Shown: positions 356 through 31,514, counted from the first letter of the stretch. The stretch is 32,000 bases of DNA from an uncultured Clostridia bacterium (GCA_934500865.1 CAKSUD010000007.1:6312-38311), one strand, 5' to 3'. Notes: generated by a model not told the origin, from the letters alone. Numbers and translations: made by a program.

Positions 356-3300
356 ATGGATAAATTGTTACACATAGGTATGGACATTGGTTCTACTACC
401 TTAAAAATAGTTTGTTTAGATGAAAACGAAAATATAATATTTTCTTCGTATGAAAGGCATTTCTCAGATACAAAAAATACTGTACACAATGCTCTAAATA
501 AGTTGCTTACCGAATATGGGGATTTTAACTATACAATAACCCTTACCGGTTCAGGTGCAATGTTTATTTCTAAAGCTTTAAAATTACCATTTATACAAGA
601 GGTAATTTCTTGTAAACGTGTGGTAGAAAAAGATATGCCAACTACTGATGTAGTAATAGAGCTTGGCGGGGAAGATGCTAAGATAATTTACTTTGATAAA
701 TCAATAGAGCAAAGAATGAATGGAACATGTGCCGGTGGAACAGGTGCATTTTTAGACCAAATGGCTTTGTTACTAAACACAGATACAATCGGACTAAATG
801 AACTTGCTAAGAATTATAAACTGATTTACCCAATAGCTTCAAGATGCGGAGTTTTTGCGAAATCAGATGTACAGCCGTTGTTAAACGAGGGGGCAGCTAA
901 AGAAGACATTGCTGTATCTATTTTCCAAGCGGTTGTAAACCAAACTATAAGCGGATTAGCGTGTGGCAGACCTATTAGAGGAAACATTGCATTTTTGGGT
1001 GGGCCACTTAACTATTTATCTGAACTTAAAAAGAGGTTTATAGAAACATTAAATCTGAAGGATGAAAATGTAATTTCACCGGAGAATGCACATTTGCTTG
1101 TTGCAAAGGGAGCTGCACTTGACTCTATTAATCATCAGCCAATTACTCCTGAAATATTACGCAACAGATTAAGTATGCTAAGCAACATTCAAGATGATAT
1201 GACTGAACCATTAAAACCATTATTTGAAAATGAAAAAGAGTATGGGGAGTTTTTAGCACGTCATAAGAAAAACGAAGTGGCAAAGGCTAATTTAAAAGAA
1301 TACAAAGGTAATTGTTTTTTAGGAATTGATGCAGGTTCAACAACAAGTAAACTTGTATTAACAGATGACAAAGGCAGACTACTTTATTCGGCATATAAAG
1401 GAAATGAAGGCAAACCACTACAAAGTGTTATTGAGATGATAAAGGAAGTATATAAAATTCTTCCACAAAAAGTTAATATTAAAAGATGTGGAGTAACCGG
1501 TTACGGTGAACAATTAATAAAAGCTGCGTTAAATGTAGAAGAGAACGAAATAGAAACGATTGCACACTATACAGCTGCAAGTCGTTTTATGCCTAAAGTT
1601 GACAGTATTGTTGATATTGGCGGTCAAGATATGAAGTATATAAAAATAAAGAACGGAACAATTAACAATATAATGTTAAACGAAGCATGTTCATCAGGAT
1701 GTGGTTCTTTCTTAGAAACATTTGCAAAGAGCTTAAATCTTACTATGGATAAGTTTGTTGAGGAAGCTCTAAAGTCAAAGAGACCGGTTGATTTAGGTTC
1801 TCGTTGTACTGTTTTTATGAATTCTAAGATCAAACAAGCTCAAAAAGAGGGATATACTGTTGGAGATATTTCTGCAGGGCTTTCTTATTCAGTTATAAAA
1901 AATGCTATTCAAAAGGTAATGAAGATAAGAGACATTAGTACACTAGGAGAAAATATTGTTGTACAAGGTGGTACTTTCTATAATGATGCAGTTTTAAGAG
2001 CATTTGAAATTATAACAGGAAAAAATGTAATAAGACCGGATATTGCCGGGCTTATGGGAGCATATGGTATGGCTCTTATAGCTAAAGAGAATTATGAGAA
2101 GTCAAAAAATAAGAATGTAAAAACAACTCTTCTTAGTGTTGGCGAGTTAGAAAGCTTAGAAATAAAAGTTGACTTTACGAGATGCAAAGGTTGTGAAAAC
2201 AACTGTATGCTTACAATAAATAAATTCTCAAATGGCGAGAGATTTATTTCAGGTAACAGATGTGAACGTGGAAGCGGAAAAGGCACATCTAAAAATGATT
2301 TGCCTAATTTATATAAATATAAGAATGAAAGAATTTTTGGATATACTCCGCTTGATGAAAGCGAAGCTAAAAGAGGGGTTATAGGAATCCCTAGGGTTCT
2401 AAATATGTATGAAGATTATCCTTTCTGGTTTACTTTCCTTACAAATTTAGGATTTAGAGTTATTCTTTCTGAGAAGAGTAGCAGAAAAACTTATGAAAAA
2501 GGTATGGAATCTATGCCATCCGAGTCAGTATGCTATCCTGCTAAACTTACACATGGTCATGTTATGAGTTTAATTAATGCTGGAATAAAAACTATATTCT
2601 ATCCTTGTATTCCATATTCAAGAAAAGAATTTGAAAAGGCAGATAATAAGTATAATTGTCCTATCGTTATTTCTTATCCGGAAGTTTTGAAGAATAACGT
2701 GGAGGAGCTTAAAGATATTAAGTTTATAAATTCCTTCCTTCCTTTCGATGTAAAGAATTTAGTTAGTGTAATTATGGAATTGCCGGAATTTGCTGAATAT
2801 AAATTTACTAAGAAAGAATTAACCAAGGCTGCTAAACTTGCTGAGGCAGAATATCAAAAGTGTAAGACTGATATAAGGAAAAAAGGAAGAGAAGCCTTAA
2901 GTTATATGAAGAAGAACAAGGTTCGCGGAATTGTTTTAGCGGGTAGACCTTATCATATAGACCCTGAAATTAACCATGGTATAGATACACTAATTACCGG
3001 ATTAAATTTATGTGTCTTATCTGAAGATTCTATTTCTGATTTGGCAGAAGTAAAGAGACCAATAAGAGTAGTAGACCAATGGGTATATCATGCAAGACTT
3101 TATGCGGCAGCTAATTTTGTTGGAAAAACTGACGGACTTGAACTTGTTCAATTAAATTCTTTTGGATGTGGTGTAGATGCAGTAACAACAGACCAAGTAG
3201 AAGAAATATTGTCAAGTTACGGAAAGTTATATACCTTAATAAAAATTGATGAGGTAAATAACTTAGGTGCAGTTAGAATAAGAATTCGTTCACTTCTTGC

Positions 3301-4642
3301 AAGTATGAATAAGCGTAAGGGATTACCATGCAGTAAAGAAAATGTAGGTAATTATGAGATAGATAAAAAGATATTTACAGAAGAAATGAGAAAGAACTAT
3401 ACAATTCTAGTTCCACAAATGGCTCCTATTCATTTCGCACTTTTAGAGGGCGTATTAAAGTCAGAAGGCTATAATGCAAAGCTATTAAAAAATTGTACAA
3501 TGAAAACTGTTGAGACAGGACTTAAATATGTTAATAATGATGCTTGTTATCCTTCTATTTTAACAACCGGTCAAATGATAGAAGCACTTGATTCCGGAGA
3601 ATATGATTTGGATAAAACTGCTCTTATAATGTCACAAACTGGTGGCGGGTGTCGTGCAACAAACTATATAGGATTTATCAGAAAAGCGTTAAAAGATGCC
3701 GGTTACAGCAATATTCCGGTAATATCATTTAATATAGTTGGAATGGAAAAGAACCCCGGATTTAAGATTACTTTTAGTATGGTAAGTAAATTACTAAGAG
3801 CTGTAATATATGCTGATTTACTTCAAAAGATGTTAATGAAGAATAGGGCGTATGAGGTAAATAAGGGAGAGACACAAGCATTATTTGAAAAGTGGATGGA
3901 AAAGTCTAAGAAACTTTTGACAAAATCAAGTATAAAACAATATAAACAAGGAATTGTTGATATGGTGGCTGATTTTGAAAAGATAAAGCTTGATACTTCA
4001 GTGGTTAAACCTAAGGTTGGAATTGTTGGCGAAGTTTTAATTAAGTATCATCCTTTTGGAAATAACAATGTTGCCGAGAAGCTTGAAGAGGATGGTGCAG
4101 AAGTAGTAATGCCGGACTTTATGGGATTTGTTAAGTTCATTGCAACTCACAAGATAACCTTTAACAAGTTATTAAATACAGATAAAACTAAGGCAAAGAT
4201 ATTTAAATATGCAATTAAGTTAATAGACAAGATAGAAGAAACAGCGAGGGTAGAACTTAGTAAGTCTAAAAAAGATTATTTGCCAACATGCAATATATGG
4301 GAACTAGAGGAGAAGGTAAAAGATATTTTATCTATTGGAAATCAGACTGGTGAAGGATGGTTCTTAACGGCTGAAATGATAGAGTATATAGAACACGGAA
4401 TACCTAATATAGTATGTGTTCAGCCGTTTGCGTGTCTACCTAACCATATTGTTGGAAAGGGAGTTATAAAGACTATAAGAAGTAAATTCCCTGAGGCAAA
4501 TATTGTGCCAATTGACTATGACCCGGGAGCGAGTGAGACTAACCAAACAAACAGAATAAAGCTACTAATGACGGTTGCTAAAGATAAATTAAAGGGGAAA
4601 GAAAAAGTAAAGGAAGAGAAAAAAGAGGAAGTTTTAGTATAG
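356..4642 (+). CDS. Fused acyl-CoA dehydratase activase-related protein: two tandem BcrAD/BadFG (HgdC-type) ATPase domains plus a DUF2229/2-hydroxyacyl-CoA-dehydratase-like C-terminal half
   Basis: 1428-aa ORF with GAGGT RBS at 345-349. Residues ~4-255 and ~319-578 each carry an acetate/sugar-kinase-fold phosphate motif (DIGSTT, DAGSTT). Each also has a Cys pair at the positions of the HgdC [4Fe-4S] ligands (C125/C164 and C445/C484). A C610-x2-C613-x3-C617...C636 motif follows. The C-terminal ~750 aa resembles the dehydratase-component/DUF2229 family. Confidence 0.85.
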   Translation: MDKLLHIGMDIGSTTLKIVCLDENENIIFSSYERHFSDTKNTVHNALNKLLTEYGDFNYTITLTGSGAMFISKALKLPFIQEVISCKRVVEKDMPTTDVVIELGGEDAKIIYFDKSIEQRMNGTCAGGTGAFLDQMALLLNTDTIGLNELAKNYKLIYPIASRCGVFAKSDVQPLLNEGAAKEDIAVSIFQAVVNQTISGLACGRPIRGNIAFLGGPLNYLSELKKRFIETLNLKDENVISPENAHLLVAKGAALDSINHQPITPEILRNRLSMLSNIQDDMTEPLKPLFENEKEYGEFLARHKKNEVAKANLKEYKGNCFLGIDAGSTTSKLVLTDDKGRLLYSAYKGNEGKPLQSVIEMIKEVYKILPQKVNIKRCGVTGYGEQLIKAALNVEENEIETIAHYTAASRFMPKVDSIVDIGGQDMKYIKIKNGTINNIMLNEACSSGCGSFLETFAKSLNLTMDKFVEEALKSKRPVDLGSRCTVFMNSKIKQAQKEGYTVGDISAGLSYSVIKNAIQKVMKIRDISTLGENIVVQGGTFYNDAVLRAFEIITGKNVIRPDIAGLMGAYGMALIAKENYEKSKNKNVKTTLLSVGELESLEIKVDFTRCKGCENNCMLTINKFSNGERFISGNRCERGSGKGTSKNDLPNLYKYKNERIFGYTPLDESEAKRGVIGIPRVLNMYEDYPFWFTFLTNLGFRVILSEKSSRKTYEKGMESMPSESVCYPAKLTHGHVMSLINAGIKTIFYPCIPYSRKEFEKADNKYNCPIVISYPEVLKNNVEELKDIKFINSFLPFDVKNLVSVIMELPEFAEYKFTKKELTKAAKLAEAEYQKCKTDIRKKGREALSYMKKNKVRGIVLAGRPYHIDPEINHGIDTLITGLNLCVLSEDSISDLAEVKRPIRVVDQWVYHARLYAAANFVGKTDGLELVQLNSFGCGVDAVTTDQVEEILSSYGKLYTLIKIDEVNNLGAVRIRIRSLLASMNKRKGLPCSKENVGNYEIDKKIFTEEMRKNYTILVPQMAPIHFALLEGVLKSEGYNAKLLKNCTMKTVETGLKYVNNDACYPSILTTGQMIEALDSGEYDLDKTALIMSQTGGGCRATNYIGFIRKALKDAGYSNIPVISFNIVGMEKNPGFKITFSMVSKLLRAVIYADLLQKMLMKNRAYEVNKGETQALFEKWMEKSKKLLTKSSIKQYKQGIVDMVADFEKIKLDTSVVKPKVGIVGEVLIKYHPFGNNNVAEKLEEDGAEVVMPDFMGFVKFIATHKITFNKLLNTDKTKAKIFKYAIKLIDKIEETARVELSKSKKDYLPTCNIWELEEKVKDILSIGNQTGEGWFLTAEMIEYIEHGIPNIVCVQPFACLPNHIVGKGVIKTIRSKFPEANIVPIDYDPGASETNQTNRIKLLMTVAKDKLKGKEKVKEEKKEEVLV

Positions 4643-4804: not shown

Positions 4805-5909
4805 ATGATAGAGTTTGAAGAATACAAAATTCAGTTGGAGGAGCTAAAGAAATCTATTAAAGAATTGGGTGTTTCTCTTTGACATCGCTCAAAAAGAGAA
4901 AAATATAGAAGAGCTTGAAGGGGAGATTTCTAAAGATGGTTTTTGGGATGATTTAGAGAATTCTCAAAAGGTACTTCAAAAGAGTAAGAATTTGAAATCT
5001 TCTGTTGAGAAATATAATAAATTGGTATCTGATGAAGAAGATTTAGAAACATTAAACGAACTTGCTATTGAAGAAGATGATGCTAGTTTGGTTGAAGAAA
5101 TAGGCAAGGGAATTTATAAGTTAAATAAAACTACTGAGAAGATGAGACTTGAGGCTTTACTTAGTGGACCGTATGATAAAAATAATGCTATTTTGACTTT
5201 GCATTCTGGAGCGGGTGGAACAGAAGCTCAGGATTGGGTTGAAATGCTTTACAGAATGTATCTTAGATGGGCAGAGCAAAACGGATACAAAGCTCGTGAA
5301 TTAGATTGCCTTCCGGGAGATGACGCCGGAATTAAGAGTGTAACCTTTATTGTAGAGGGAGAAAATGCTTATGGATATTTGGCTTGTGAGAAAGGTGTAC
5401 ATAGATTAGTAAGAATTTCTCCATTTGACTCTAATGCCAGACGACATACTTCTTTTGCGTCTCTAGATGTTATGCCTGAAATTTCTGATGATATGAACAT
5501 TGACATCAATCCAGCAGATTTAAGGGTGGATACATATCGTGCAAGTGGTGCTGGTGGTCAGCATATTAACAAGACTGAATCTGCGGTAAGAATAACTCAT
5601 ATACCTACCGGTGTTGTTGTGTCTTGCCAAACAGAACGTTCTCAGATTCAAAACAGAGAAACTGCAATGAAGATGTTAAAGTCTAAATTGTTTGCTATTA
5701 AGGAACGTGAGCATTTGGATAAAATTGAAGCTATAAAGGGGGATATGAAGGAAATTGCTTGGGGAAGCCAAATTCGTTCATACGTTTTTCATCCGTACAG
5801 TATGGTTAAAGACCATAGAACAGATTATGAGGTCGGAAATGTTCAGGCTGTTATGGATGGAGAGATTGATGGTTTTATTAATGCATATTTAAATTCAAAG
5901 GTAAAATAG
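4805..5909 (+). CDS. prfB: Peptide chain release factor 2, expressed through a programmed +1 ribosomal frameshift
   Basis: Frame 0 runs ATG 4805 ... [25 protein letters not shown] and stops at TGA 4880-4882. The +1 frame continues from GAC 4881 as [14 protein letters not shown]... to TAG 5907-5909. RF2 hallmarks are present: SPF (RISPFDS) and GGQ ([11 protein letters not shown]). The ORF-track entry 4869..5909 covers only the downstream frame. Confidence 0.95.
4867..4883 (+). promoter_or_regulatory. prfB autoregulatory +1 frameshift site (CTT TGA C) with a weak internal SD-like GGGTG
   Basis: CTT TGA C at 4877-4883 is the canonical RF2 shift heptamer. GGGTG at 4867-4871 sits 5 nt upstream of CTT. 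Confidence 0.9.
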
Positions 5910-11594: not shown

Positions 11595-11981
11595 ATGGGA
11601 AATAGTCCTCTTATAATTGATTGGATAAATAAAGCCGAAACAGATATGAAGTGTGCTAAAATTTTGTTTGAACATGATGGTGGGAACGATGCTGTTACTT
11701 TTCACTGCCAACAAGCAATAGAAAAGGCTTTGAAGGCAATTATATTATATTTGTTTTCTACATTGGAATCAGGACATAGCTTGTTGTACTTATGCAAAAA
11801 AGTTATAACTAAGTTGCCACAGTTCTCTACATATTTGGAGGGGTGTATTTTTGTAAATCAATATTATATAGAGACTAGATACCCTAATGAAAACCCTGTA
11901 ACAGTATCTAATGAAGAAGCTATGCAATGTCTTAAATATGCTGAAAATGTTCTATGTGCAGTTAAAGCAAATATTGAATAA
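11595..11981 (+). CDS. HEPN-domain protein (PF05168-like), with no adjacent nucleotidyltransferase partner
   Basis: 128 aa with a GGAGGGGGAG RBS. The pattern A..D...A..L.......A.F.CQQAIEKALKAI...GHSL..L......YYIETRYP....V..EEA matches the classical HEPN helical bundle. Confidence 0.7.
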   Translation: MGNSPLIIDWINKAETDMKCAKILFEHDGGNDAVTFHCQQAIEKALKAIILYLFSTLESGHSLLYLCKKVITKLPQFSTYLEGCIFVNQYYIETRYPNENPVTVSNEEAMQCLKYAENVLCAVKANIE

Positions 11982-12010
11982 AAAAAGTGGACTAAAGTCC
12001 ACTTTTTTTA
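11980..12010. terminator. Bidirectional rho-independent terminator between the convergent genes
   Basis: A-run, stem AGTGGAC (11986-11992) paired with GTCCACT (11997-12003), loop TAAA, then a T7 run. It serves both the HEPN gene (+) and the 12008-12904 gene (-). Confidence 0.8.
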
Positions 12011-12904
12011 TACTAAGCAATCTCCATACCTAAAAATTACGTTTTGTTTTAATGTTCCCAATGAAGTTTTTGTTTCTGTGACCATTTTTTCTATATATAA
12101 ATTAATTACATTTACATATAATTTTCCGTATGACAGTTTCCCTGATTTTGCTGGGAAATAGCCTTCATATACATAGTAATTTTCACTTGACAACTTATTA
12201 TTTAAATTCATTCCACAAGATAATGTGGATAAATAATTTATTTCTTCTAGTGTTGTACTGCTAGTCAGCTTAATTGCGGATTCGTGCCATGTGTTATTTA
12301 GTATGTTTTTTTCCATTATCTGATTTTTTCTTGTGTCTATATAAATGGAATTCCCAAAAGATACATTGTTTATTTCGTTTATAATGTCTATTTGTACATC
12401 ATATACATTGGAGATGATACTATTTAATCCAGAAAAAAAGGCATTTGTTTCAAAATAATCTTTAGCATTTTTTATGAATATAGTTTTTGAACTTTCATCC
12501 CAAATGGTAAAGTAGTCTAAAAATTCATTTAGTGTCCTAATTGGGATATATGTTTGGTTTTTATATAATACAGGAGCACATGGAATAAGGATTTCTAAAT
12601 TATTTATTTTTGCAACATTTGAATTGATTTTAAATATTAGTTCTTTATCCTCATAGATTATTTTTACGACTTGCTTGGTTTTATCCCATGAAAGATTATC
12701 TAGTGGGAGTGAAAGTTTTTCACACATTTCTTTGAGTGGGAATAATATGTTGGAGTCTGAGATTATTATTGGCGAAGATAGAGATACTTTTTCTGAGTTT
12801 ATTACAAGGTTTATGTTATTATTTTCGATATAATCTAGGTTGTTTGCTGAGCTTGTACATAAAAACGGAATTATAGTTATGAATAAAATAATCAATTTTT
12901 TCAT
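12008..12904 (-). CDS. Secreted protein with a copper-amine-oxidase N-terminal-like (stalk) domain
   Basis: The likely start is MKKLIILFITIIPFLCTSSA (signal peptide) at 12904, with an AAGGA RBS. The stalk-domain pattern is present: INSEKVSL..PIII.D.NILFPLKEMCEKL......W...K..V.I, then ...YKNQTYIPIRTLNEFL. The C-terminal half was not recognised. Confidence 0.6.
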   Translation of the reverse strand: MKKLIILFITIIPFLCTSSANNLDYIENNNINLVINSEKVSLSSPIIISDSNILFPLKEMCEKLSLPLDNLSWDKTKQVVKIIYEDKELIFKINSNVAKINNLEILIPCAPVLYKNQTYIPIRTLNEFLDYFTIWDESSKTIFIKNAKDYFETNAFFSGLNSIISNVYDVQIDIINEINNVSFGNSIYIDTRKNQIMEKNILNNTWHESAIKLTSSTTLEEINYLSTLSCGMNLNNKLSSENYYVYEGYFPAKSGKLSYGKLYVNVINLYIEKMVTETKTSLGTLKQNVIFRYGDCLV

Positions 12905-13077
12905 TTGTAAATCATCCTTTCTGTATAATAAATATATGCAAAAAGGAATTTTATAGAACAAAAAGTAAATAACAATTTAAATGTTAGAAAAATATTGTAA
13001 TTTCTAGTATTTTAAAGAATATAAGAGAAAGGGCAACCAAAATTAATGTAAATCGTATTTTTGAATAATTTGTGCAA

Positions 13078-22949: not shown

Positions 22950-22984
22950 AGAGTGAAATCTTAAAAAAGATTTTGCTCTTTTTT
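22950..22984 (+). terminator. Rho-independent terminator of rpoBC
   Basis: 13-bp stem AGAGTGAAATCTT paired with AAGATTTTGCTCT (two G-U wobbles), AAAA loop, T-run at 22979-22984. Confidence 0.8.
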
Positions 22985-23047
22985 ATGTAAGAAACTATAT
23001 AAATTAAAAAAATTTAGATATAATACATTTGGAAGGAGAGGAGAATT

Positions 23048-24103
23048 ATGAATAAAACAAAAGTATTTCAAGTAGGAACAGGTAAAATGGCCAAATACAC
23101 AATGAGATATGTATTTGAAAAAGGTGGCGAGGTTGTTGGAGCTGCTGATATAAATCCGAAGGTTATAGGTAAAGATATCGGTGAAATAATAGGAGCAGAG
23201 AACAAAAACGTAAAAGTCACTGATGTTTCTAACCTAGAAAAAATTTTACTAGATGTAAAACCAGATGTTTGTATAGTAGAAACAATGAGCTTATTAAATG
23301 ATGTTGGAAATGTTTTGTTGACTTGTGCAAAATGTGGTGTAAATGCAATCACAACTTGTGAAGAGGCATTCTATTCTTGGAATTCAAATCCAACTCTAAC
23401 TGAAGAAATAGACAGATTAGCAAAAGAACACAACTGCACAATTACAGGAACAGGATATCAAGATATATTCTGGGGGCAACTAATAACATCACTTGCAGGA
23501 GCTACTCAAAAAATAACTAAAATAAAGGGAAGCTCTAGCTACAATGTTGAAGAATATGGTATAGCATTGGCAAAAGCACATGGTGCAGGTTTAACAAAAG
23601 AGGAATTTGAAAGAGATGTAGCATCAGCAGACGAAATAAGTAAAGAAGAAAGAGAAAAATTAATAAATAGCAGAGAATTTTTACCTTCATATATGTGGAA
23701 CACAAACGGATGGTTATGTTCAAAACTAGGCTTAACAATTAAGTCTCAAACACAAAAATGTGTACCACAATTCTATGATGAAGATATAGAATCAAGCACA
23801 CTAAATATGACTGTAAAGAAAGGTATGGCAACTGGAATGAGTGCTGTTGTTACTACTCAAACAGAGGAAGGAATAACAATAGAGTCAGAATGTATAGGAA
23901 AAGTATATTCCAAAAATGATGTGGATACAAACGAATGGACAGTATACGGAGAGCCTGATACAACATTAAAAATTACAATGCCGGCAACAGTAGAACTTAC
24001 TTGTGCAACAGTTGTAAACAGAATACCTGATGTAATAAAAGGAGAAGCAGGATTTGTTCCGACTTGTAAGTTTGGTGAATTAACATATAAATTCAAAATT
24101 TAA
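23048..24103 (+). CDS. NAD(P)-dependent oxidoreductase of the DapB-fold / 2,4-diaminopentanoate-dehydrogenase (native amine dehydrogenase) family
   Basis: 351 aa with GGAAGGAGAGGAG RBS. It has an N-terminal Rossmann motif VGTGKMA, and ..INP..IGKDIGEI.G......V.VTD followed by GTGYQDIFW. From memory this resembles the layout of Clostridial Ord/2,4-DAPDH and of dihydrodipicolinate-reductase-like proteins. No alignment was run. Confidence 0.55.
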   Translation: MNKTKVFQVGTGKMAKYTMRYVFEKGGEVVGAADINPKVIGKDIGEIIGAENKNVKVTDVSNLEKILLDVKPDVCIVETMSLLNDVGNVLLTCAKCGVNAITTCEEAFYSWNSNPTLTEEIDRLAKEHNCTITGTGYQDIFWGQLITSLAGATQKITKIKGSSSYNVEEYGIALAKAHGAGLTKEEFERDVASADEISKEEREKLINSREFLPSYMWNTNGWLCSKLGLTIKSQTQKCVPQFYDEDIESSTLNMTVKKGMATGMSAVVTTQTEEGITIESECIGKVYSKNDVDTNEWTVYGEPDTTLKITMPATVELTCATVVNRIPDVIKGEAGFVPTCKFGELTYKFKI

Positions 24104-24120
24104 TTAGAATTTATTAAACA

Positions 24121-24147
24121 AAAAAGAGACTTTTGGTCTCTTTTTTT
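24121..24147. terminator. Bidirectional terminator between the oxidoreductase (+) and the DUF1540 gene (-)
   Basis: AAAAAGAGAC-TTTTG-GTCTCTTTTTTT: a short GC-containing stem flanked by an A-run and a T-run. It overlaps the DUF1540 stop codon. Confidence 0.75.
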
Positions 24148-24307
24148 AGTCCTTGCAAATAAATGTTTCGCAACAAGTTCCGTCAGATGTATGAGCCTTA
24201 CCGGACATATTGTTTACGTCTAATTGTTTTGCTGTGCAAAAGTGATTTTCCCAGTATGTGCATGTGTCTACACTGCAATGAACAGGCATTCTATTTGGAT
24301 TTCCCAT
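24146..24307 (-). CDS. DUF1540-family small cysteine-rich protein
   Basis: MGNPNRMPVHCSVDTCTYWENHFCTAKQLDVNNMSGKAHTSDGTCCETFICKD fits the DUF1540 pattern V.C.V..C.Y.....C.A..I.V.........T.C.TF. The ATG at 24307 has an AAGGAG RBS 9 nt upstream. The track's longer start at 24340 has no RBS. Confidence 0.65.
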   Translation of the reverse strand: MGNPNRMPVHCSVDTCTYWENHFCTAKQLDVNNMSGKAHTSDGTCCETFICKD

Positions 24308-24451: not shown

Positions 24452-27400
24452 ATGGATAAAAAAATGTATACTTTGTCACGTCCGCAGAAAACTATTTGGT
24501 ATATGGAAAAATTGTACAAAGATTCTGGAATGACTAATATTTGTGGAACAGTAAGATTTAAAATTGAAGTTGATTTTGAACTTCTGCGTAAAGCAATTAA
24601 CATTTTTGTTTCTGCTAATGACGCTATGCGCGTTAAAGTGCAGGAGGATAATGGAACCCCGTATCAATATATAAAAGATTATAAAGAGTTTGAAGTTAAA
24701 TTTGTTGATTTTTCTGATAAAACTAAAGAAGAGTTTTATAGGTGGGAAGAAATTGAGAGCAAGAAACCAATTGATACTTCAAATAGTGAATTGTTTGAAT
24801 TTATAATGATTAAATTTAGTGATTCAGAGGGCGGATATCTTATAAAGGTTAACCATATTATTAGTGATGCATGGAGCATTATGCTTTTGGTAAGCGACAT
24901 AAAAGATATATATTCTGAGTTAGTTTATGGAAATTTTGAAAAATATGAAAAGCCCTCTTATTTAGATTATATAGACTCTGAGGAAGAATATTTTAATTCA
25001 AAGCGTTATATTTCGGATAAAGAATATTGGGAAGAGAAGTTAAAAGATTTCGAAGAGGTCACAACACTAAAAGACAATGTAGGAGATAAAAGCTTTACTA
25101 ATGCTACCAGAAAGACGTTTTTGGTACCGGAAAAATTAAATAGAAAAATGAAGTCTTTCTGTGAAGAAAATAAAGTGTCAGAATATGCATTATTCATAGG
25201 TGCATTGGCTATGTACATAAATAGAGTTAAGAATAAAGAAAATATATTGTTTGGCACATCTTTATTAAATAGAACTGGAATAAAGGAAAAAGAAACGATA
25301 GGGATGTTTGCTAGTACGGCTGTTCCATTAAAAGTTGATATTAAAGATGATACAAATTTTAGCATGTTTATAAAAGAAATATCAAAAGAAATTCTGTCTG
25401 TTTTAAGGCATCAAAAGTACCCTTATGAAGATATGCTTAAAATAGCCCAAAATGCTAACAAATCAACTGACAAAATATTTGATATAGTTCTTAACTATCA
25501 AAATGCAAAAGGAACTAAAGGCGTTTTAGAGCACGAAGTACCGTATTCTACAAGATGGAATTTCAATGGGGAGCAAATAGAATCTTTAATTGTTAATGTA
25601 AATGACAGAGATAATGAAGGTAAATTAATAATAGATTATGATTTCTTAAATCATATGTTTTGTATTAAGGAAATAGAGTTTTTACACCAACATATTATTA
25701 ATATTTTGTGGCATGCACTAGACAATCCGGAAAAAGCGATCTCAAAGCTAGAAATGCTTTCAGAGGATGAAAAAAGACAAATTCTATTTGATTTTAATGA
25801 TACAGAAGCAGCTTATAATAAGAATATTACAATACACGAATTATTTGAAGAGATAGTAAAAAAATATCCGAATAATATTGCTGTTAAATTTGAAAATGAA
25901 ACTATCACTTATAGAGAGCTGAATGAAAAGGCAAATAGTTTAGCCAGAACTTTAAGGAAGTTGGGTGTAAGGCGTCAGGATATTATTGCGGTTATAATGT
26001 ATAAGTCAATAAATACAATAATTGCTACTTTGGGTATTCTTAAAGCCGGAGCGGCATATTTGCCAATTGACCCTGATTTTCCAAGCGATAGGAAGAAATT
26101 TATGATTACTGACTGCAATTCAAGGGTATTGATTACTGAACAAAAGTTAAAAAATGAGAATCCTTTTGATGGAACAGTTATATGTTTAGACGAGGAAGGA
26201 GTATTCTGTGAAGATATAACTAATTTAGAAAATATAAATGAATCCGGTGATTTGATTTATATAATTTATACATCCGGCTCTACGGGTAATCCAAAAGGAG
26301 TTATGTTAGAACATAGAAATGTTGTAAGGCTTCTATTCAACAGTAAATTCCAGTATGATTTTAATGAGAATGACGTTTGGACAATGTTTCACTCATATTG
26401 TTTTGACTTCTCGGTATGGGAAATGTATGGTGCACTACTTTATGGCGGAAAACTTATAATTATATCTAAGGAAACCTCAAAAGACTTAAATAAATTTGTC
26501 AAATTGCTTAGAGAAGAAAATGTTAGCGTCCTTAATCAAACACCAGCGATGTTTTATAATGTAATTAATGAAGAAATGTTATATAATGACGCTGATTTAA
26601 ACATAAGGTATGTTATTTTTGGGGGAGAGGCATTAAATCCTAGTAAATTAAAACCATTTAGAGAGAAATATCAAAAATGTAAATTAATTAATATGTATGG
26701 AATAACTGAGACAACAGTTCATGTTACATTTAAAGAGCTAAGTGATGATGACATAGAAAATGGAAAGAGTAATATAGGTAAGCCTATTCCAACATTAAAA
26801 ACATATATAATGGATAAGAACTTGAACTTATTACCAATTGGAATACCAGGGGAGATTTGTGTTTCCGGTGATGGAGTTGCGAGGGGATATTTGAATCAAA
26901 AAGAACTAACCAACAAAAAATTTGTTGTTAATCCATATAGCCCAAATGAAAGATTATATCGTTCCGGTGACTTGGGAAGATTCTTTGCAAGAGGAGATAT
27001 GGAATACTTGGGAAGGATTGACAGTCAAGTTAAGGTTAGAGGTTTTAGAGTTGAAATAGGTGAGATTGAACGAAATATATCTAGTTTTCCTAAGGTAAAA
27101 GATGTTGTAGTTATTCCTAAGAAGGATGAAAATGAAAAGAGCTATTTAGTTGCTTATTTAGTGTGTACACAGGTGATAGATATTCAAGAATTAAAAAAAC
27201 ATTTAGGAAAATTTATGCCTACATATATGATTCCTTCATATTTTGTGTTTATGGAAAAGCTACCGATTAATGCTAATGGGAAGATAAATAGAAAGGAACT
27301 GCCTGAACCGTTAAGAGAAATAAAAGAGGATGTACCATATGTTGAGCCTAGAGATAAAACCGATAAAGTTTTGCAAACCGTTTTCTCAGAGGTTTTAAAG

Positions 27401-28771
27401 CTAGATAATATAGGAATAGATAATGATTTTTTTGCTATGGGGGGAGATTCTTTAACGGTTATTCAAGCATTGACTAAATTATATAAATATGATTTAGGAA
27501 TTAGTGCTACGGATTTTTATAAGTATCCTACAATTAGGTTGCTAAGTAATAAAGTTAAAAATAATATACAATTAGAGGATGATATGCAAAGAGAGACTTT
27601 TGCAGTGGTTCCTGATTTCAAATTATCAGAGAAGTTAACTAATAGGGAAATGAAAAATGTCTTAGTTACAGGTGCAACCGGTTTTTTAGGTAGCCATATT
27701 GTAAAGAATTTGTTAGACAATACTGAGGCTAAAGTTTATTGTTTGGTTAGGGGGAGTTCTCAAGCTGAAGCCAGGGAAAGGTTTTATAAAGTATTTAAAT
27801 TTTACTTTAATACTCAATATTGCGAAGATAGAATAGAAATTATTAATGGGGATATTACTATGGAAGATCTTGGAGTAGGCTCTGAGATGTCTTATAAATT
27901 GGGCAGAACAATAGATAATATTATACATACAGCTGCACTTGTTAAATATTATGGGGATTACAAAGAATTTGAGACAATTAATATAGCAGGTGTTAGAAAT
28001 GTAATGATTTTCGCAAAAAAATATGGCATAAAACTTAATCACATTTCTACAATAGGTATTTCAGGGAGCTATTTAGTAAGAAATAACATAAATTCAAAAG
28101 AGCTTACAGAAAAAGATTTATATGTGGGTCAAAATTACACTGAAAATGCTTATGTTAAGACTAAATTCTTAGCTGAAAATATGCTATTAAATGAGATTAG
28201 TAATGGACTAAAATTGACTATATTTAGAATGGGAAATTTAACAGGAAGGTATAGCGATGGGTATTTTCAAAAGAATGCTAAGGATAATGCTTTTTATAAT
28301 ATATTAAAATCTATAATAGAACTAAAAAAAGTCTCTTCAGATATGGATGATGTAGATGTTGAGCTTACACCAGTTGATATGGCTGCAAATTGTGTAGTAA
28401 GCATTGCCAAAACTAATGAATGCGATTCTAGAATTTTTCATATAACAAATTATAAAGAACCACATTTTGAAAAAATAAGACATATGTTGGTAAGACTTGG
28501 CTTTGATATTCAAGTTATTAGTAATGACGAATTTAATAGGTACATAAAAGAAGTGTCGGGTAAAGATGAAGAAAGTGAAATACTTAGAGGTATAATTACA
28601 GATGTGGGAACAGATGGTAGACTGAATTATAATATACCTGTAAAAGCAACTGCAAATATTACAGCAAAATATCTAAAAATGTTAGGATTCGAATGGCCTG
28701 ATATAGAAATTGAATACGTAAAAAAGATAGTGAATTATTTAAATTCAATAAATTATTTTGAAACTAAATGA
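24452..28771 (+). CDS. Single-module non-ribosomal peptide synthetase, domain order C-A-T-R (terminal thioester reductase); A-domain code predicts threonine
   Basis: 1439 aa with AGGGAGG RBS at 24437-24443. C domain, aa ~5-435: LSRPQKTIWYME, active-site NHIISDAW at aa 134-141. A domain, aa ~455-950: LIYIIYTSGSTGNPKGV, FDFSVWE, NMYGITETT, GEICVSGDGVARGY, YRSGDLG, GRIDSQVKVRGFRVEIGEIE, NGKINRKEL. T domain: FFAMGGDSL, Ser1000 at nt 27449-27451. R domain, aa ~1066-1425: LVTGATGFLGSH, HISTIG, YVKTK. Confidence 0.95.
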   Translation: MDKKMYTLSRPQKTIWYMEKLYKDSGMTNICGTVRFKIEVDFELLRKAINIFVSANDAMRVKVQEDNGTPYQYIKDYKEFEVKFVDFSDKTKEEFYRWEEIESKKPIDTSNSELFEFIMIKFSDSEGGYLIKVNHIISDAWSIMLLVSDIKDIYSELVYGNFEKYEKPSYLDYIDSEEEYFNSKRYISDKEYWEEKLKDFEEVTTLKDNVGDKSFTNATRKTFLVPEKLNRKMKSFCEENKVSEYALFIGALAMYINRVKNKENILFGTSLLNRTGIKEKETIGMFASTAVPLKVDIKDDTNFSMFIKEISKEILSVLRHQKYPYEDMLKIAQNANKSTDKIFDIVLNYQNAKGTKGVLEHEVPYSTRWNFNGEQIESLIVNVNDRDNEGKLIIDYDFLNHMFCIKEIEFLHQHIINILWHALDNPEKAISKLEMLSEDEKRQILFDFNDTEAAYNKNITIHELFEEIVKKYPNNIAVKFENETITYRELNEKANSLARTLRKLGVRRQDIIAVIMYKSINTIIATLGILKAGAAYLPIDPDFPSDRKKFMITDCNSRVLITEQKLKNENPFDGTVICLDEEGVFCEDITNLENINESGDLIYIIYTSGSTGNPKGVMLEHRNVVRLLFNSKFQYDFNENDVWTMFHSYCFDFSVWEMYGALLYGGKLIIISKETSKDLNKFVKLLREENVSVLNQTPAMFYNVINEEMLYNDADLNIRYVIFGGEALNPSKLKPFREKYQKCKLINMYGITETTVHVTFKELSDDDIENGKSNIGKPIPTLKTYIMDKNLNLLPIGIPGEICVSGDGVARGYLNQKELTNKKFVVNPYSPNERLYRSGDLGRFFARGDMEYLGRIDSQVKVRGFRVEIGEIERNISSFPKVKDVVVIPKKDENEKSYLVAYLVCTQVIDIQELKKHLGKFMPTYMIPSYFVFMEKLPINANGKINRKELPEPLREIKEDVPYVEPRDKTDKVLQTVFSEVLKLDNIGIDNDFFAMGGDSLTVIQALTKLYKYDLGISATDFYKYPTIRLLSNKVKNNIQLEDDMQRETFAVVPDFKLSEKLTNREMKNVLVTGATGFLGSHIVKNLLDNTEAKVYCLVRGSSQAEARERFYKVFKFYFNTQYCEDRIEIINGDITMEDLGVGSEMSYKLGRTIDNIIHTAALVKYYGDYKEFETINIAGVRNVMIFAKKYGIKLNHISTIGISGSYLVRNNINSKELTEKDLYVGQNYTENAYVKTKFLAENMLLNEISNGLKLTIFRMGNLTGRYSDGYFQKNAKDNAFYNILKSIIELKKVSSDMDDVDVELTPVDMAANCVVSIAKTNECDSRIFHITNYKEPHFEKIRHMLVRLGFDIQVISNDEFNRYIKEVSGKDEESEILRGIITDVGTDGRLNYNIPVKATANITAKYLKMLGFEWPDIEIEYVKKIVNYLNSINYFETK

Positions 28772-30780
28772 TACGAAAGAAAAGAGTGAAAAATATGAGA
28801 AAAAGGTCTGATGTGTGGGGAATTATAAATATTTATAATATTATAATAGTAATATTGGGAATAGGATTTTATTTTTTACTACCTATTTTGTTAAATTATG
28901 CACCAGGGTCATATAATAGTTATTTTGAAACTCAAATAGATTCGGGAATGAATTATTGTGTTCAGTTCTTCTTAGCAATACTTGCAGTAATTATTATTGT
29001 TGACACTTTCGTATGGTTTCAATTTAAAGAAATCAAGAGTTTGGAAGAGATAACTTCAGATGATAATACACGAGATAAAGAATGTAAAATAAAAGCAAAA
29101 TGCTTTAGGTTACCATTTAGATTATATTTATATGAAATAACTATAATTCCAGTAATAGTTGCTATTGTCTTGTGGGTAACTAAAACTGAAATAGGACTAA
29201 TTATAAAAACAACGTTGATAATATTTTTATTTGCTACAGTTCTTTCTACATCAGCATATGTGTTTACTAGAAATAAAATGAAACAGCTTTTCAACAGGAT
29301 AAAAAATATTGAAATATGTGGAGGAAAGTCTAATATAAGTCTTGCTAGTAAAATATTTTTGCAAATTTTTCCGCTTTTTTTGGTGATTTCAATTTTCTTA
29401 TCATTTTTAGGATATGTAAGACTGATTAATGAAAAAGGACTAATGCGGTTCGAAGAATATACGGTAAGATTAAATGAAAGTTTGAATCATAGCATCGCTA
29501 CAGAAAAAGAATTGTTTGAATTAGCAAATAAGATAGTTAGAATAAATCCTAATGACGAGATGTTTATAATACGAAATAATGAAGTTCTCTATAATGAAGG
29601 TAGTGAATTAAGTGGTTTTTTCATAAAATATGCAACAATTTTAGGGGAGGAATATAATGGACATTTGTACGACTATTATGGTTCAGATATTCAGGGAACA
29701 GCAAAATATATAATGATAGAAAATAACAATTATATAGTAGGTGTAAAATATAATTTAGTATCCCAAGAAATGATTTTGGTTTTTGTTTGTGGTACGATTT
29801 TTATGTTGCTTTTGACGATATTTGTACTTGTATTTTTAAGCAAGGATTTATCGGACGATATCGGTGAAGTAGGAATGTATTTGTATAAGCTTTCTAATCA
29901 AGATAGCATAGATTATGATAAAAAACTTCCTGTTACCTCTAATGATGAAATTGGTGAGTTGGTTATTTCTTTCAATAAAATTCTTGATTTAGAAAAGAAC
30001 AACATTGAAACTATGTCTAGAAACCAGGAAATTTTAGTAGAACAAGAACGTCTTTCGTCTTTAGGACAATTAATTGGTGGCATTGCACATAACTTAAAAA
30101 CACCTATAATGTCTATTTCCGGAGCTTTAGAAGGAGTAGAGGATTTAATAAAAGAGTATGATGAATCAATAGACGATAGCCAGGTCACAAAAGAGGATCA
30201 TCATCAAATTGCCGGTGAAATGAAAGGATGGATAAGCAAAATAAGACCATATTTATCCTATATGACTGAAGTCATTGACGCGGTAAAGGGGCAAGCTGTT
30301 TCAATGAATGCTTCAACCGTGGGAGAATTTTCAGCAGAGGAACTTATTGCAAGAACTCAGATTTTAATGAAAAATGAGTTAAAACGACGTCATTGTAATT
30401 TGAATCTTGATTTAAATATTAGTGAGAAGACACAAATTAAAGGTGAAATAAGTGCAATAGTTCAAGTTATGGATAACTTAATAATTAATGCGATGGATGC
30501 TTACGGAGAAAAGGGCGGAAATATAGACATTAAGGTAAGAGAAGATGAAGACAAGGTTTATATAGAAGTGGCGGATTTAGCAGGAGGAATATCTAGTTCA
30601 GTTAAAGACAAGTTATTTAAGGAAATGATTACTTCAAAGGGCAAGAATGGAACTGGATTAGGGTTATATATGTGCTATTCTACAATTAAGGGAAAATTTG
30701 ATGGTGACATGTGGTTTGAAAGTAAAGAAGGAGTGGGTACAACTTTCCATATTACATTAAACAAACTAAAGATTTCATAA
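28768..30780 (+). CDS. Multi-pass membrane sensor histidine kinase (6 predicted TM segments, extracytoplasmic ~115-aa domain, HAMP, DHp, HATPase_c); no cognate response regulator adjacent
   Basis: 670 aa. ATG 28768-28770 overlaps the NRPS TGA 28769-28771; an alternative in-frame ATG is at 28795. Hydrophobic segments lie at about aa 17-42, 63-86, 117-137, 142-166, 194-217 and 335-357. HAMP-like segment: DEIGELVISFNKIL. H-box: SLGQLIGGIAHNLKTPI, His441 at nt 30088-30090. N-box: NLIINAMDAY. G-boxes: DLAGGI and GTGLGLYMC. Confidence 0.9.
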   Translation: MIRKKRVKNMRKRSDVWGIINIYNIIIVILGIGFYFLLPILLNYAPGSYNSYFETQIDSGMNYCVQFFLAILAVIIIVDTFVWFQFKEIKSLEEITSDDNTRDKECKIKAKCFRLPFRLYLYEITIIPVIVAIVLWVTKTEIGLIIKTTLIIFLFATVLSTSAYVFTRNKMKQLFNRIKNIEICGGKSNISLASKIFLQIFPLFLVISIFLSFLGYVRLINEKGLMRFEEYTVRLNESLNHSIATEKELFELANKIVRINPNDEMFIIRNNEVLYNEGSELSGFFIKYATILGEEYNGHLYDYYGSDIQGTAKYIMIENNNYIVGVKYNLVSQEMILVFVCGTIFMLLLTIFVLVFLSKDLSDDIGEVGMYLYKLSNQDSIDYDKKLPVTSNDEIGELVISFNKILDLEKNNIETMSRNQEILVEQERLSSLGQLIGGIAHNLKTPIMSISGALEGVEDLIKEYDESIDDSQVTKEDHHQIAGEMKGWISKIRPYLSYMTEVIDAVKGQAVSMNASTVGEFSAEELIARTQILMKNELKRRHCNLNLDLNISEKTQIKGEISAIVQVMDNLIINAMDAYGEKGGNIDIKVREDEDKVYIEVADLAGGISSSVKDKLFKEMITSKGKNGTGLGLYMCYSTIKGKFDGDMWFESKEGVGTTFHITLNKLKIS

Positions 30781-30797
30781 AATATTTACTCAATCAA

Positions 30798-30826
30798 TTG
30801 ACTTTACATAAAAGACATGATAGAAT
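30798..30826 (+). promoter_or_regulatory. Candidate sigma-A promoter for the WG-repeat-like gene
   Basis: TTGACT (30798-30803), 17-nt spacer, TAGAAT (30821-30826), preceded by a TGA extended -10. Confidence 0.55.
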
Positions 30827-30883: not shown

Positions 30884-31480
30884 ATGGGAAACTTTTTCGT
30901 AGACAACAACTGCCAACCCATCGATGCAAATGAGAACAACTTCTGTTTTGTAGGGGAGTATACTTATGGAAGAAGGATAGTAGGAATTTATACGGATAAG
31001 ATGTATTATGGAATTCAAATAAAAGGCGAAGTGGTTTCACCTTGGTTTGAAAAACTGGTAATTATGCCGAACTTTAATATTTGTCAGAAAGGTGAAAAGA
31101 ATTTCTTAACATCTCCTGACGGCAAGAAAGTTATTTCACCCGAATACAAAGAAATCGGAGGCTTTTGTAAATTACCTATGTTAAATAGGTATTATGCAAA
31201 AACAGAGGATTTTGAGGGCAAGTACGGTACTGTTAGTTCAGAAGGAAAAACAGGCATCGAATGTTCACAAGAAGAATTAACCAGATTCGGAAGTGCGTTC
31301 GCAGTATGCGGTAAGAAAATCAATGAACAACTAAGGTATGGCATATTTGGTGTAAATGGAGAAAAGGTTGTGGATTACAAGTATGTTTCTTATGCCACTA
31401 AGGGAGGAAGAGTGTGCTTGAAGTCACCGGAAGGTGAAATTGTAGCATATGACATATTTGGAATACTAATTAAAAAGTAA
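30884..31480 (+). CDS. Hypothetical cytoplasmic protein with WG-containing-repeat-like (PF14903-like) units
   Basis: The start MGNFFVDNN is at ATG 30884, with a GAGAGG RBS at 30871-30876; the track's TTG 30869 start is rejected. Recurrent units are YYGIQIKGEVVSPWFEKL, KYGTVSSEGKTGIE and RYGIFGVNGEKVVDYKY. There is no signal peptide. The family call is from pattern memory only. Confidence 0.4.
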   Translation: MGNFFVDNNCQPIDANENNFCFVGEYTYGRRIVGIYTDKMYYGIQIKGEVVSPWFEKLVIMPNFNICQKGEKNFLTSPDGKKVISPEYKEIGGFCKLPMLNRYYAKTEDFEGKYGTVSSEGKTGIECSQEELTRFGSAFAVCGKKINEQLRYGIFGVNGEKVVDYKYVSYATKGGRVCLKSPEGEIVAYDIFGILIKK

Positions 31481-31487
31481 TTTTTTT

Positions 31488-31514
31488 AGGAGACCGAAAG
31501 GTCTCCTTTTTTTG
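31488..31514 (+). terminator. Rho-independent terminator
   Basis: AGGAGACC-GAAA-GGTCTCCT (8-bp stem, GNRA-type loop) followed by T7. This is the first convincing terminator after the NRPS start. Confidence 0.9.

Follow-up and report, generated by a model that had tools for sequence, protein, structure and literature searches.

A putative lipo-amino-acid signaling cassette in Clostridia formed by a nonribosomal peptide synthetase and a sensor histidine kinase

In the present study, we analyzed a 32-kb window (the whole stretch of 32,000 nucleotides; GCA_934500865.1, CAKSUD010000007.1:6312-38311) of low-GC (~32%) chromosomal DNA that originates from an uncultured bacterium of the Clostridia type, in which a one-module nonribosomal peptide synthetase (NRPS) gene directly precedes a sensor histidine kinase gene. 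Based on comparisons among related loci, we consider it reasonably probable that the NRPS produces, and the kinase perceives, the signal of a lipo-amino-acid signaling cassette that is widespread in Clostridia. A first-pass annotation of the window had already proposed a signal-synthase and sensor cassette. The conservation of the pair and the co-variation of the sensor with the specificity of the synthase uphold this proposal, whereas the translational coupling, the orphan state of the kinase, and the missing acyl donor that accompanied it had to be revised.

The NRPS and the kinase are conserved as neighbors in dozens of Clostridia, most of them uncultured. Individual loci in relatives that hold homologous genes are referred to by L-numbers (L001, L005, and so forth). 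A scan with the N-terminal sensor region of the kinase only (alignment A1), with one genome per GTDB species, yielded 80 loci. The NRPS was directly beside the kinase in 68 of these, mostly upstream and in four loci downstream, and was located elsewhere in the same cluster in three more (L034, L060, and L071). Three loci were cut by contig ends and were uninformative; the NRPS was, therefore, beside the kinase or in the same cluster in 71 of the ~77 informative loci. The approximately six loci without an NRPS were among the most distant matches (full-sensor identity of 25-30%; in L087, the match is restricted to a fragment), and three of them were metagenome-assembled genomes (MAGs) labeled outside Clostridia. 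Distant sensor relatives under non-Firmicutes MAG labels were found in L038 (Ignavibacteriales), L060 (Brevinematales), and L085 (Chitinivibrionales), with no adjacent NRPS in L038 and L085; these could represent real spread or binning contamination. In the reverse scan, metagenome contigs were searched with an alignment of the condensation (C) domains of the family, and relatives with at least 29% identity and enough flanking sequence were considered. A related kinase adjoined 29 of these relatives and none was found beside ~6 (~29/35), and distant multimodular NRPSs had no adjacent kinase. The adjacency check suggested in the first-pass annotation has, thus, been performed from both sides, with a favorable outcome in each.

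The pair also occurs in unrelated genomic contexts. Kinase homologues with 72, 53, and 48% identity each follow an NRPS with condensation, adenylation, thiolation, and reductase domains (C-A-T-R), behind rpoC, htpG, and dnaE, respectively. Dehalobacter restrictus DSM 9455 is a cultured carrier of the cassette. Contigs from the human gut and other metagenomes (L104, L108, L111-L119, L122, and L125) encode a bimodular C-A-T-C-A-T-R NRPS followed by a kinase of a second subfamily, the core of which is 50-56% identical and the sensor of which has 6-7 transmembrane (TM) segments and no extracytoplasmic domain. Some overlap between these loci and the gut NRPS family known to make dipeptide aldehydes is possible. 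Doubled cassettes were also noted: L036 (618-20523) carries two side by side, namely, a bimodular NRPS, a kinase, and a receiver (REC) gene, and then another kinase with a C-A-T-R NRPS, while L034 (4310-13561) carries a kinase-REC fusion followed by an NRPS and a kinase.

The specificity of the synthase and the sequence of the sensor vary together. The codes of the adenylation (A) domains across species were Asn-type (13 loci), Thr (11), Ser (11), DSELTAEVCK (8), Gly-type (7), and others. Among locus pairs with a kinase-core identity of 0.7-0.8, sensor identity was 0.55 when the code was the same and 0.28 when it was different; at a core identity of 0.9-1.0, the corresponding values were 0.87 and 0.48. 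An effect of this size was reached by 0 of 5000 label permutations among locus pairs at matched kinase-core identity, and it persisted when the identity of the C domain was included as a covariate.

Since permutations do not fully remove relatedness, we regard a contrast at one chromosomal site, with the gene order rpoC-(dehydrogenase)-DUF1540-NRPS-kinase, as the most telling evidence. The genomes compared are related species (synonymous divergence, dS, of rpoC ~0.26) and not strains of one species. In L012, the rpoC gene of which is ~90% identical to that of the window at the nucleotide (nt) level, the Thr code is kept, the sensor is 60-75% identical at the amino acid (aa) level, and the kinase core is 93% identical. 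In L005 (rpoC ~95% identical in nt), the C domain is 92% identical in aa, the A, thiolation (T), and reductase (R) domains are only 43, 48, and 43% identical, and the code is Ser; the kinase sensor is 36-54% identical, the HAMP domain 82%, and the core (DHp-CA) 99%. In L091 (rpoC ~95% identical in nt), the whole NRPS has been replaced, the sensor is 19-28% identical, and the core is 98% identical. The NRPS at this site in L091 (6001-9975) is C-A-T-TE with a Gly-type code, ending in a thioesterase (TE) rather than a reductase. L012, a more distant genome that shares the code of the window, accordingly retains a more similar sensor than L005 and L091.

The variable block corresponds to positions 25700-29870 of the window and comprises the A-T-R part of the NRPS and the TM and extracytoplasmic sensor part of the kinase. 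Nucleotide identity between the window and L005 is ~85% to the left of this block, ~58% across it, and 83-91% to its right. The edges in L005 coincide with the C/A junction (~25,700) and the junction between the sixth TM helix (TM6) and HAMP (~29,870), while those in L091 are the start of the NRPS and the same TM6/HAMP point. The A-T part of the L005 NRPS is 72-76% identical to that of L013 and its C domain only 44%, which indicates a chimeric origin of the L005 NRPS. Synthase specificity and the sensor have, thus, been exchanged together as a mosaic, with the kinase core fixed. These exchanges are possibly old because synonymous sites are saturated.

An alternative is that the kinase senses an unrelated host, envelope, or nutrient cue and that its sensor is hypervariable on its own account, for example, through exposure to phages or immunity, and is merely linked to A-T-R. 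The contiguity of the variable block fits this explanation, as do the variation of the R domain, which does not necessarily determine specificity, along with the sensor, and the saturation of synonymous sites, which leaves the timing of the exchanges unresolvable. However, two independent alleles share the TM6/HAMP junction as their right edge; on the left, one allele has its edge at the C/A junction and the other at the start of the gene. All edges, therefore, lie at functional domain borders. Furthermore, co-variation persists in many lineages, and physical linkage by itself does not account for an adjacency that has survived deep divergence and differing contexts. We consider this alternative to be quite improbable and favor the synthase-receptor relationship.

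The NRPS (24452-28771, + strand, 1439 aa) was identified with Pfam and NCBIfam and is preceded by a strong Shine-Dalgarno (SD) sequence, GGGAGG, 8 nt before its ATG. Its domains, all on the + strand, are condensation (aa 4-445, 24461-25786; PF00668, E 1.5e-81), adenylation (aa 465-944, 25844-27283; PF00501 and PF13193), thiolation or peptidyl carrier (aa 973-1033, 27368-27550; PF00550, with the phosphopantetheine site GGDSL), and a terminal thioester reductase (aa 1069-1435, 27656-28756; PF07993, E 2e-49, covering positions 1-370 of 371 of TIGR01746). The R domain has the nucleotide-binding motif TGATGFLG and YVKTK as the YxxxK motif. The residues at Stachelhaus positions 652, 653, 656, 695, 722, 724, 748, 756, 757, and 944 are DFWNIGMVHK, which we take to be the canonical Thr code. 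These ORFs, domain assignments, and code bear out the earlier description of a stand-alone, Thr-type C-A-T-R NRPS directly before a sensor kinase. The C-domain motif, NHIISDAW, retains the catalytic second His and the Asp, and the Gly of HHxxxDG is replaced by Ala. The domain is presumed to be of the N-acylating starter type. The MxcG model NF038078 aligns end to end with the NRPS (positions 3-1381 of 1442); in whole-protein NCBIfam comparisons, the NRPS is far below the equivalog cut-offs of MxcG (611 vs 2300 bits) and AusA (794 vs 2500 bits).

The maximal ORF of the kinase encodes 670 aa (28768-30780, + strand) with HAMP, HisKA, and HATPase_c domains. At its 5' end (AAATGATAC), the NRPS stop codon TGA (28769-28771) overlaps an ATG (28768-70) as ATGA. 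This overlap, on which the first-pass annotation had based translational coupling, is physically present; however, it is not a conserved feature. In L011, a sister locus with 96% identity, the NRPS stop codon is TAA, giving ATAA with no ATG. The L012 kinase starts with GTG further downstream, and a 42-nt spacer separates the two genes in L005. The closest kinase homologues (79-70% identical) start with MKK(K/R)..., aligned with Met10 of the window ORF. The true start is, thus, probably the ATG at 28795 (MRKRSDVWG...), and the ATGA is probably a strain-specific accident of the TGA stop codon. A gap of 20-45 nt between the genes, and not a 4-nt overlap, is conserved; from the ATG at 28795, that in the window is 23 nt. 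Since the genes are this close and no terminator lies between them, co-transcription of the NRPS and the kinase is likely. Translational re-initiation from the NRPS to the kinase is possible. Downstream of the NRPS start, the + strand has no terminator-like site before an intrinsic-terminator-like hairpin with a T-run at 31488-31507, in agreement with the first-pass annotation.

The sensor region (28795-29847, + strand) comprises five TM helices, an extracytoplasmic alpha/beta domain (~100-120 aa), and TM6, and hydropathy gave six hydrophobic segments in the kinase. An AlphaFold (AF2) model with a mean pLDDT of 76, and of 80-89 in the sensor part, places five TM helices, the extracytoplasmic alpha/beta domain, TM6, HAMP, DHp, and CA in this order. 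Judging from the order of its secondary-structure elements alone, the extracytoplasmic domain appears to be PAS/Cache-like. A Foldseek search of the model against PDB returned kinase cores and a WalK model only, with no match for the sensor fold. The family motifs of the sensor are LNYPP, EKG, FFxKY, and YDYYG, and the family is small: a search of 1.84 billion representatives at E<=1e-3 matched only 228 clusters (50% identity). The HAMP, DHp, and CA domains occupy 29848-30777 (+ strand), with the H-box GGIAHNLKTP (His at nt 30088-30090). HATPase_c was detected at E 8e-19, and HisKA and HAMP are present though below the Pfam cut-offs. The H, N, D/G, and GxGxG (G1 and G2 box) columns are invariant across 57 family members including that in the window, and Pfam gave no receiver or HPt domain in the window kinase. 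In comparison with L005 and L091, the ratio of non-synonymous to synonymous divergence (dN/dS) of the kinase core (HAMP/DHp/CA) is 0.004-0.012 (dN 0.003, dS 0.87). This extreme purifying selection implies that the kinase is functional.

The wider family places the kinase with a partner that the window lacks. A receiver gene lies directly after the kinase, or divergent from it, in 49 of the 80 loci, and within 6 kb in 7 more. Its product has the Pfam domains REC and HD_5 (HD-GYP) or REC, DUF3369, and HD-GYP, with intact HD and HHExxDGxGYP motifs. By its sequence, the regulator of the family is of the RpfG-like type, a predicted cyclic di-GMP (c-di-GMP) phosphodiesterase. It has no DNA-binding output, and the two-component system is, therefore, not simply a transcription factor for the NRPS; this non-transcriptional output argues against an ordinary cluster-situated regulator that switches on the NRPS. 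REC-HD-GYP occurs together with the NRPS and not with this kinase family irrespective of it, a pairing that the first-pass annotation had considered contrary to its proposal. That annotation had also named Spo0A as a possible direct target of orphan kinases in Clostridia. With REC-HD-GYP as the partner in the family, a Spo0A or orphan-kinase phosphorelay is not supported by the gene context and was rejected.

Scored as a long-chain fatty-acid-CoA ligase, an AMP-binding gene forms an optional part of the cassette and is present in 18 of the 80 loci and also in L007 and L009 (509 bits for the L007 ligase; cut-off, 476), and a 76-aa acyl carrier protein (ACP) is encoded in L009 and L071. The absence of an acyl donor, therefore, does not extend to the family. 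Regulator and ligase are both missing in the window and in L001-L006, L011-L014, and L091, and likewise in ~10 other species. A regulator, transporter, phosphopantetheinyl transferase (PPTase), MbtH, TE, or acyl-donor gene had not been seen in the flanks by the first-pass annotation, and our scans agree: a threshold as permissive as E<=10 revealed no receiver domain, second AMP-binding protein, or free carrier protein in the 32 kb, and Pfam identified no transporter, PPTase, MbtH, or TE among the large ORFs. As loci of the family mostly carry the regulator and many carry the ligase, the "orphan kinase" and "no acyl donor" are local, derived states; the clade of the window has lost the adjacent copy of the regulator. 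Among the closest relatives of the window, contigs end or contain no REC within 10 kb. DHp residues near the phospho-His are identical between kinases with and without an adjacent REC-HD-GYP, which suggests that the window kinase uses the same type of partner, encoded elsewhere.

These losses raise another explanation, namely, that the cassette in the window is a decaying remnant that became non-functional after losing the regulator and acyl-CoA ligase. The lack of REC, AMP-binding, and ACP genes from the 32 kb, which is shared by the closest relatives, is compatible with decay. However, several independent assemblies contain both ORFs in intact form, no catalytic motif is missing, and dN/dS against relatives is 0.004 for the kinase core and 0.025 for the C domain. 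Furthermore, ~10 other species also keep the NRPS and the kinase without an adjacent regulator, and the DHp residues match those of kinases with an adjacent REC-HD-GYP, as described above. The intact ORFs and strong purifying selection make this explanation highly unlikely, and we continue to interpret the cassette as functional.

We propose the following mechanism for a signaling cassette. By domain logic, the starter C domain would transfer a fatty acyl group onto Thr loaded on the T domain. The acyl source in the window would have to be the acyl-CoA or acyl-ACP pool of the cell, while related loci encode a dedicated fatty-acyl-CoA ligase. The R domain would then release the product reductively as an N-acyl-threoninal, which may be further reduced to an N-acyl-threoninol; the TE variant in L091 would release an N-acyl-glycine. 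Co-variation and gene order suggest that the probably co-transcribed kinase senses this amphiphilic product via its five-TM bundle and extracytoplasmic PAS-like domain, with the head group as the specificity determinant. As predicted from the gene context of the family rather than from this genome, the kinase would phosphorylate a REC-HD-GYP regulator and thereby change c-di-GMP hydrolysis. In the clade of the window, this regulator would be encoded at a non-adjacent site.

Several points weigh against this proposal. The label permutations leave some phylogenetic non-independence in the co-variation statistics, the saturation of synonymous sites extends across the locus, and the joint variation of A-T-R and the sensor could partly reflect physical linkage in one exchanged tract. 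The first His of HHxxxDG in the C domain is Asn in the window, against a family consensus of HHLISDAW, and a PDB sequence search with the C domain matched starter and elongation C domains alike. Release may yield either an aldehyde or an alcohol. The window has no response regulator or acyl-CoA ligase. Finally, the cue that the kinase detects could be a precursor or something unrelated instead of the product itself.

The product may also act mainly on other organisms or on the envelope, for example, as a membrane lipid or, in the form of an N-acyl amino aldehyde, as an inhibitor of proteases, with the kinase as a sensor for feedback or self-protection on the producer side. NisK and BceS are producer-side sensors of their peptides, and a gut-Clostridia NRPS family of dipeptide aldehydes and pyrazinones was reportedly described by Guo et al. 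in 2017. R-terminated NRPSs of gut Clostridia have been reported to yield protease-inhibiting peptide aldehydes (PMC12327764). The presence of bimodular C-A-T-C-A-T-R versions of the cassette in human-gut contigs adds to this case, and the co-variation of sensor and product fits it equally well. However, the output domain is HD-GYP and not a transcription factor, the cassette has no conserved transporter or immunity genes, and no export- or immunity-like gene is present in the window. We regard a mainly bioactive product as unlikely, and signaling through the cognate kinase as the better account of the pair.

More tentatively, we speculate that the cassettes constitute an unrecognized small-molecule communication system of Clostridia, among them species of the gut and rumen and Dehalobacter, in which an NRPS places a species-specific head group on a fatty acyl chain, a cognate polytopic kinase detects it, REC-HD-GYP responds with a change in c-di-GMP, and synthase specificity and receptor are exchanged jointly as "dialect" cassettes, similar to agr specificity groups. 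This broader interpretation covers one- and two-module NRPSs; Thr, Ser, Asn, Gly, and other head groups; and products that are aldehydes, alcohols, or acids. The first-pass annotation knew of no NRPS-histidine kinase operon of this minimal form. We likewise found none, nor any description of an NRPS-kinase-HD-GYP cassette, in the full-text literature covered, which included few subscription journals; the cassette is, therefore, probably, although not certainly, new to the literature. Known small-molecule quorum sensing mostly concerns Gram-negative bacteria, and Firmicutes are considered to depend on peptides and autoinducer-2. If our proposal is correct, anaerobic Firmicutes would gain a lipo-amino-acid language that resembles that of acyl-homoserine lactones and is directly linked to c-di-GMP. 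The cassette would also provide a physiological role for many small orphan NRPS clusters of gut Clostridia, which have so far been discussed as sources of host protease inhibitors, and a natural set of matched synthase and receptor alleles for studies on the evolution of signaling specificity. The proposal can be tested directly, as the predicted ligands are easily synthesized and D. restrictus DSM 9455 is in culture.

The remaining large ORFs in the window encode housekeeping or surface proteins according to Pfam. The gene order is a fused BcrAD/DUF2229 activase, prfB, queH, a BspA-type leucine-rich repeat protein, holA, an S-layer homology (SLH) protein, a HemN-like radical SAM enzyme, a HEPN protein, groES/groEL, rpoB, rpoC, a DapB/Ord-like dehydrogenase, a divergent DUF1540 gene, the NRPS, and the kinase. 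Three neighbors were considered as members of the cassette and rejected, as they are confined to the clade of the window. The first is the Ord/DapB-like dehydrogenase (23048-24103) between rpoC and the cassette, which resembles 2,4-diaminopentanoate dehydrogenase below the cut-off; the window, L005, and L091 carry it, and it is cleanly missing in L011 and L012 (alignment gap 22968-24167). The second encodes a Cys-rich DUF1540 protein of 53 aa (24146-24307, - strand; PF07561, E 5e-12), divergent from the NRPS. This gene is at the same position in every member of the clade (L001-L006, L011, L012, L013, and L091), is kept upstream of the NRPS in L013 despite a different genomic context, and is missing from the rest of the cassette family. 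The third encodes a 198-aa protein (30884-31480, + strand) without a Pfam or NCBIfam match, located downstream of the kinase with no terminator between them. It has an SD sequence and its own promoter-like site (TTGACT-17-TAGAAT with a TG-extended -10, 30798-30826), and is found 3' of the kinase only in the clade of the window (L001-L006 and L024), with a weak match in L025; it may not be part of the NRPS-kinase unit. Regarding RNA elements, no riboswitch or other known RNA, such as a c-di-GMP riboswitch, was matched 5' of the NRPS by Rfam in the window, and a match at 24121-24234 was discarded as chance-level (E 0.35).

Further observations were made away from the cassette. The prfB (release factor 2) ORF (4869-5909, 346 aa) has a GTG start only 8 nt ahead of CTTTGAC (4877-4883), which is the classic +1 programmed frameshift site of prfB; this ORF is probably the post-frameshift portion of the gene. 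The activase (356-4642) is a 1428-aa fusion of two BcrAD/BadFG-type ATPase modules and DUF2229 (CoA-enzyme activase), with a weak, sub-threshold match to the N-terminal region of an IS110 transposase at aa 7-76. A stand-alone HEPN-domain protein (11595-11981) adjoins a Cu_amine_oxidN1-domain gene (12008-12961, - strand), and no other large gene is encoded on the minus strand. This stretch, with a markedly lower local GC content (26%) and a reversed AT skew, may be an inserted segment.

Among known systems, Rpf/DSF (diffusible signal factor), CqsA/CqsS, Vfm, and agr are the nearest in function; the cassette is a member of none of them, as their synthase and kinase types differ from those described here. 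Its synthase has the architecture of MxcG (myxochelin) and, as in other C-A-T-R NRPSs, AusA, and the R-terminated NRPSs of gut Clostridia, is expected to release an N-acylated amino acid reductively. Unlike MxcG, the code is Thr and not Lys and there is no aryl-carrier partner; in contrast to the dipeptide-aldehyde/pyrazinone family of gut Clostridia, a single module cannot make dipeptide aldehydes or pyrazinones.

Vfm is a 26-gene proteobacterial cluster. In Dickeya, it combines an extracellular signal, amino-acid-activating enzymes, and the in-cluster two-component system VfmI/VfmH, its signals are apparently strain-specific, and the structure of the signal was still unknown in the review concerned (PMC8860905). 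Amino-acid-activating enzymes and a two-component system similarly share one cluster in the present case; however, the output of Vfm runs via VfmH to the AraC regulator VfmE.

CqsA/CqsS (CAI-1) of Vibrio, to which LqsA/LqsS of Legionella is the counterpart, uses a pyridoxal-phosphate-dependent acyl-CoA transferase, CqsA, and a hybrid kinase, CqsS, that signals to LuxU/LuxO. As proposed for the cassette, a synthase in these systems joins an acyl chain with an amino-acid-derived unit, and a six-TM kinase encoded next to it senses the lipophilic product. No sequence relationship was found between the cassette and CqsA/CqsS or LqsA/LqsS.

The staphylococcal agr system (AgrB/D/C/A) has a ribosomal thiolactone peptide as its signal, a LytTR transcription factor, and an AgrC kinase of the HPK10 type. 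No domains of the AgrD propeptide, AgrB protease, HPK10 AgrC, or LytTR AgrA were found in the window. In the specificity groups of agr, a hypervariable block similarly consists of the signal-determining part of synthesis and the membrane sensor beside a conserved kinase core. Only this pattern of variation is alike, and the variants in the present study, in contrast to agr groups, are between closely related species.

The Rpf/DSF system of Xanthomonas comprises the fatty-acyl-CoA ligase RpfB, the synthase RpfF, the sensor kinase RpfC, and RpfG with REC-HD-GYP. Unlike this system, the synthase of the cassette is an NRPS and not a crotonase, its non-hybrid kinase includes an extracytoplasmic PAS-like domain, it is found in Gram-positive anaerobes, and the window has no RpfG-like or RpfB-like genes. 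In Rpf/DSF and, as predicted, in the cassette family, a synthase of a lipid signal, a polytopic kinase, a c-di-GMP-lowering REC-HD-GYP, and a fatty-acyl-CoA ligase are found in one locus, and the third gene of the cassette family is RpfG-like according to Pfam.

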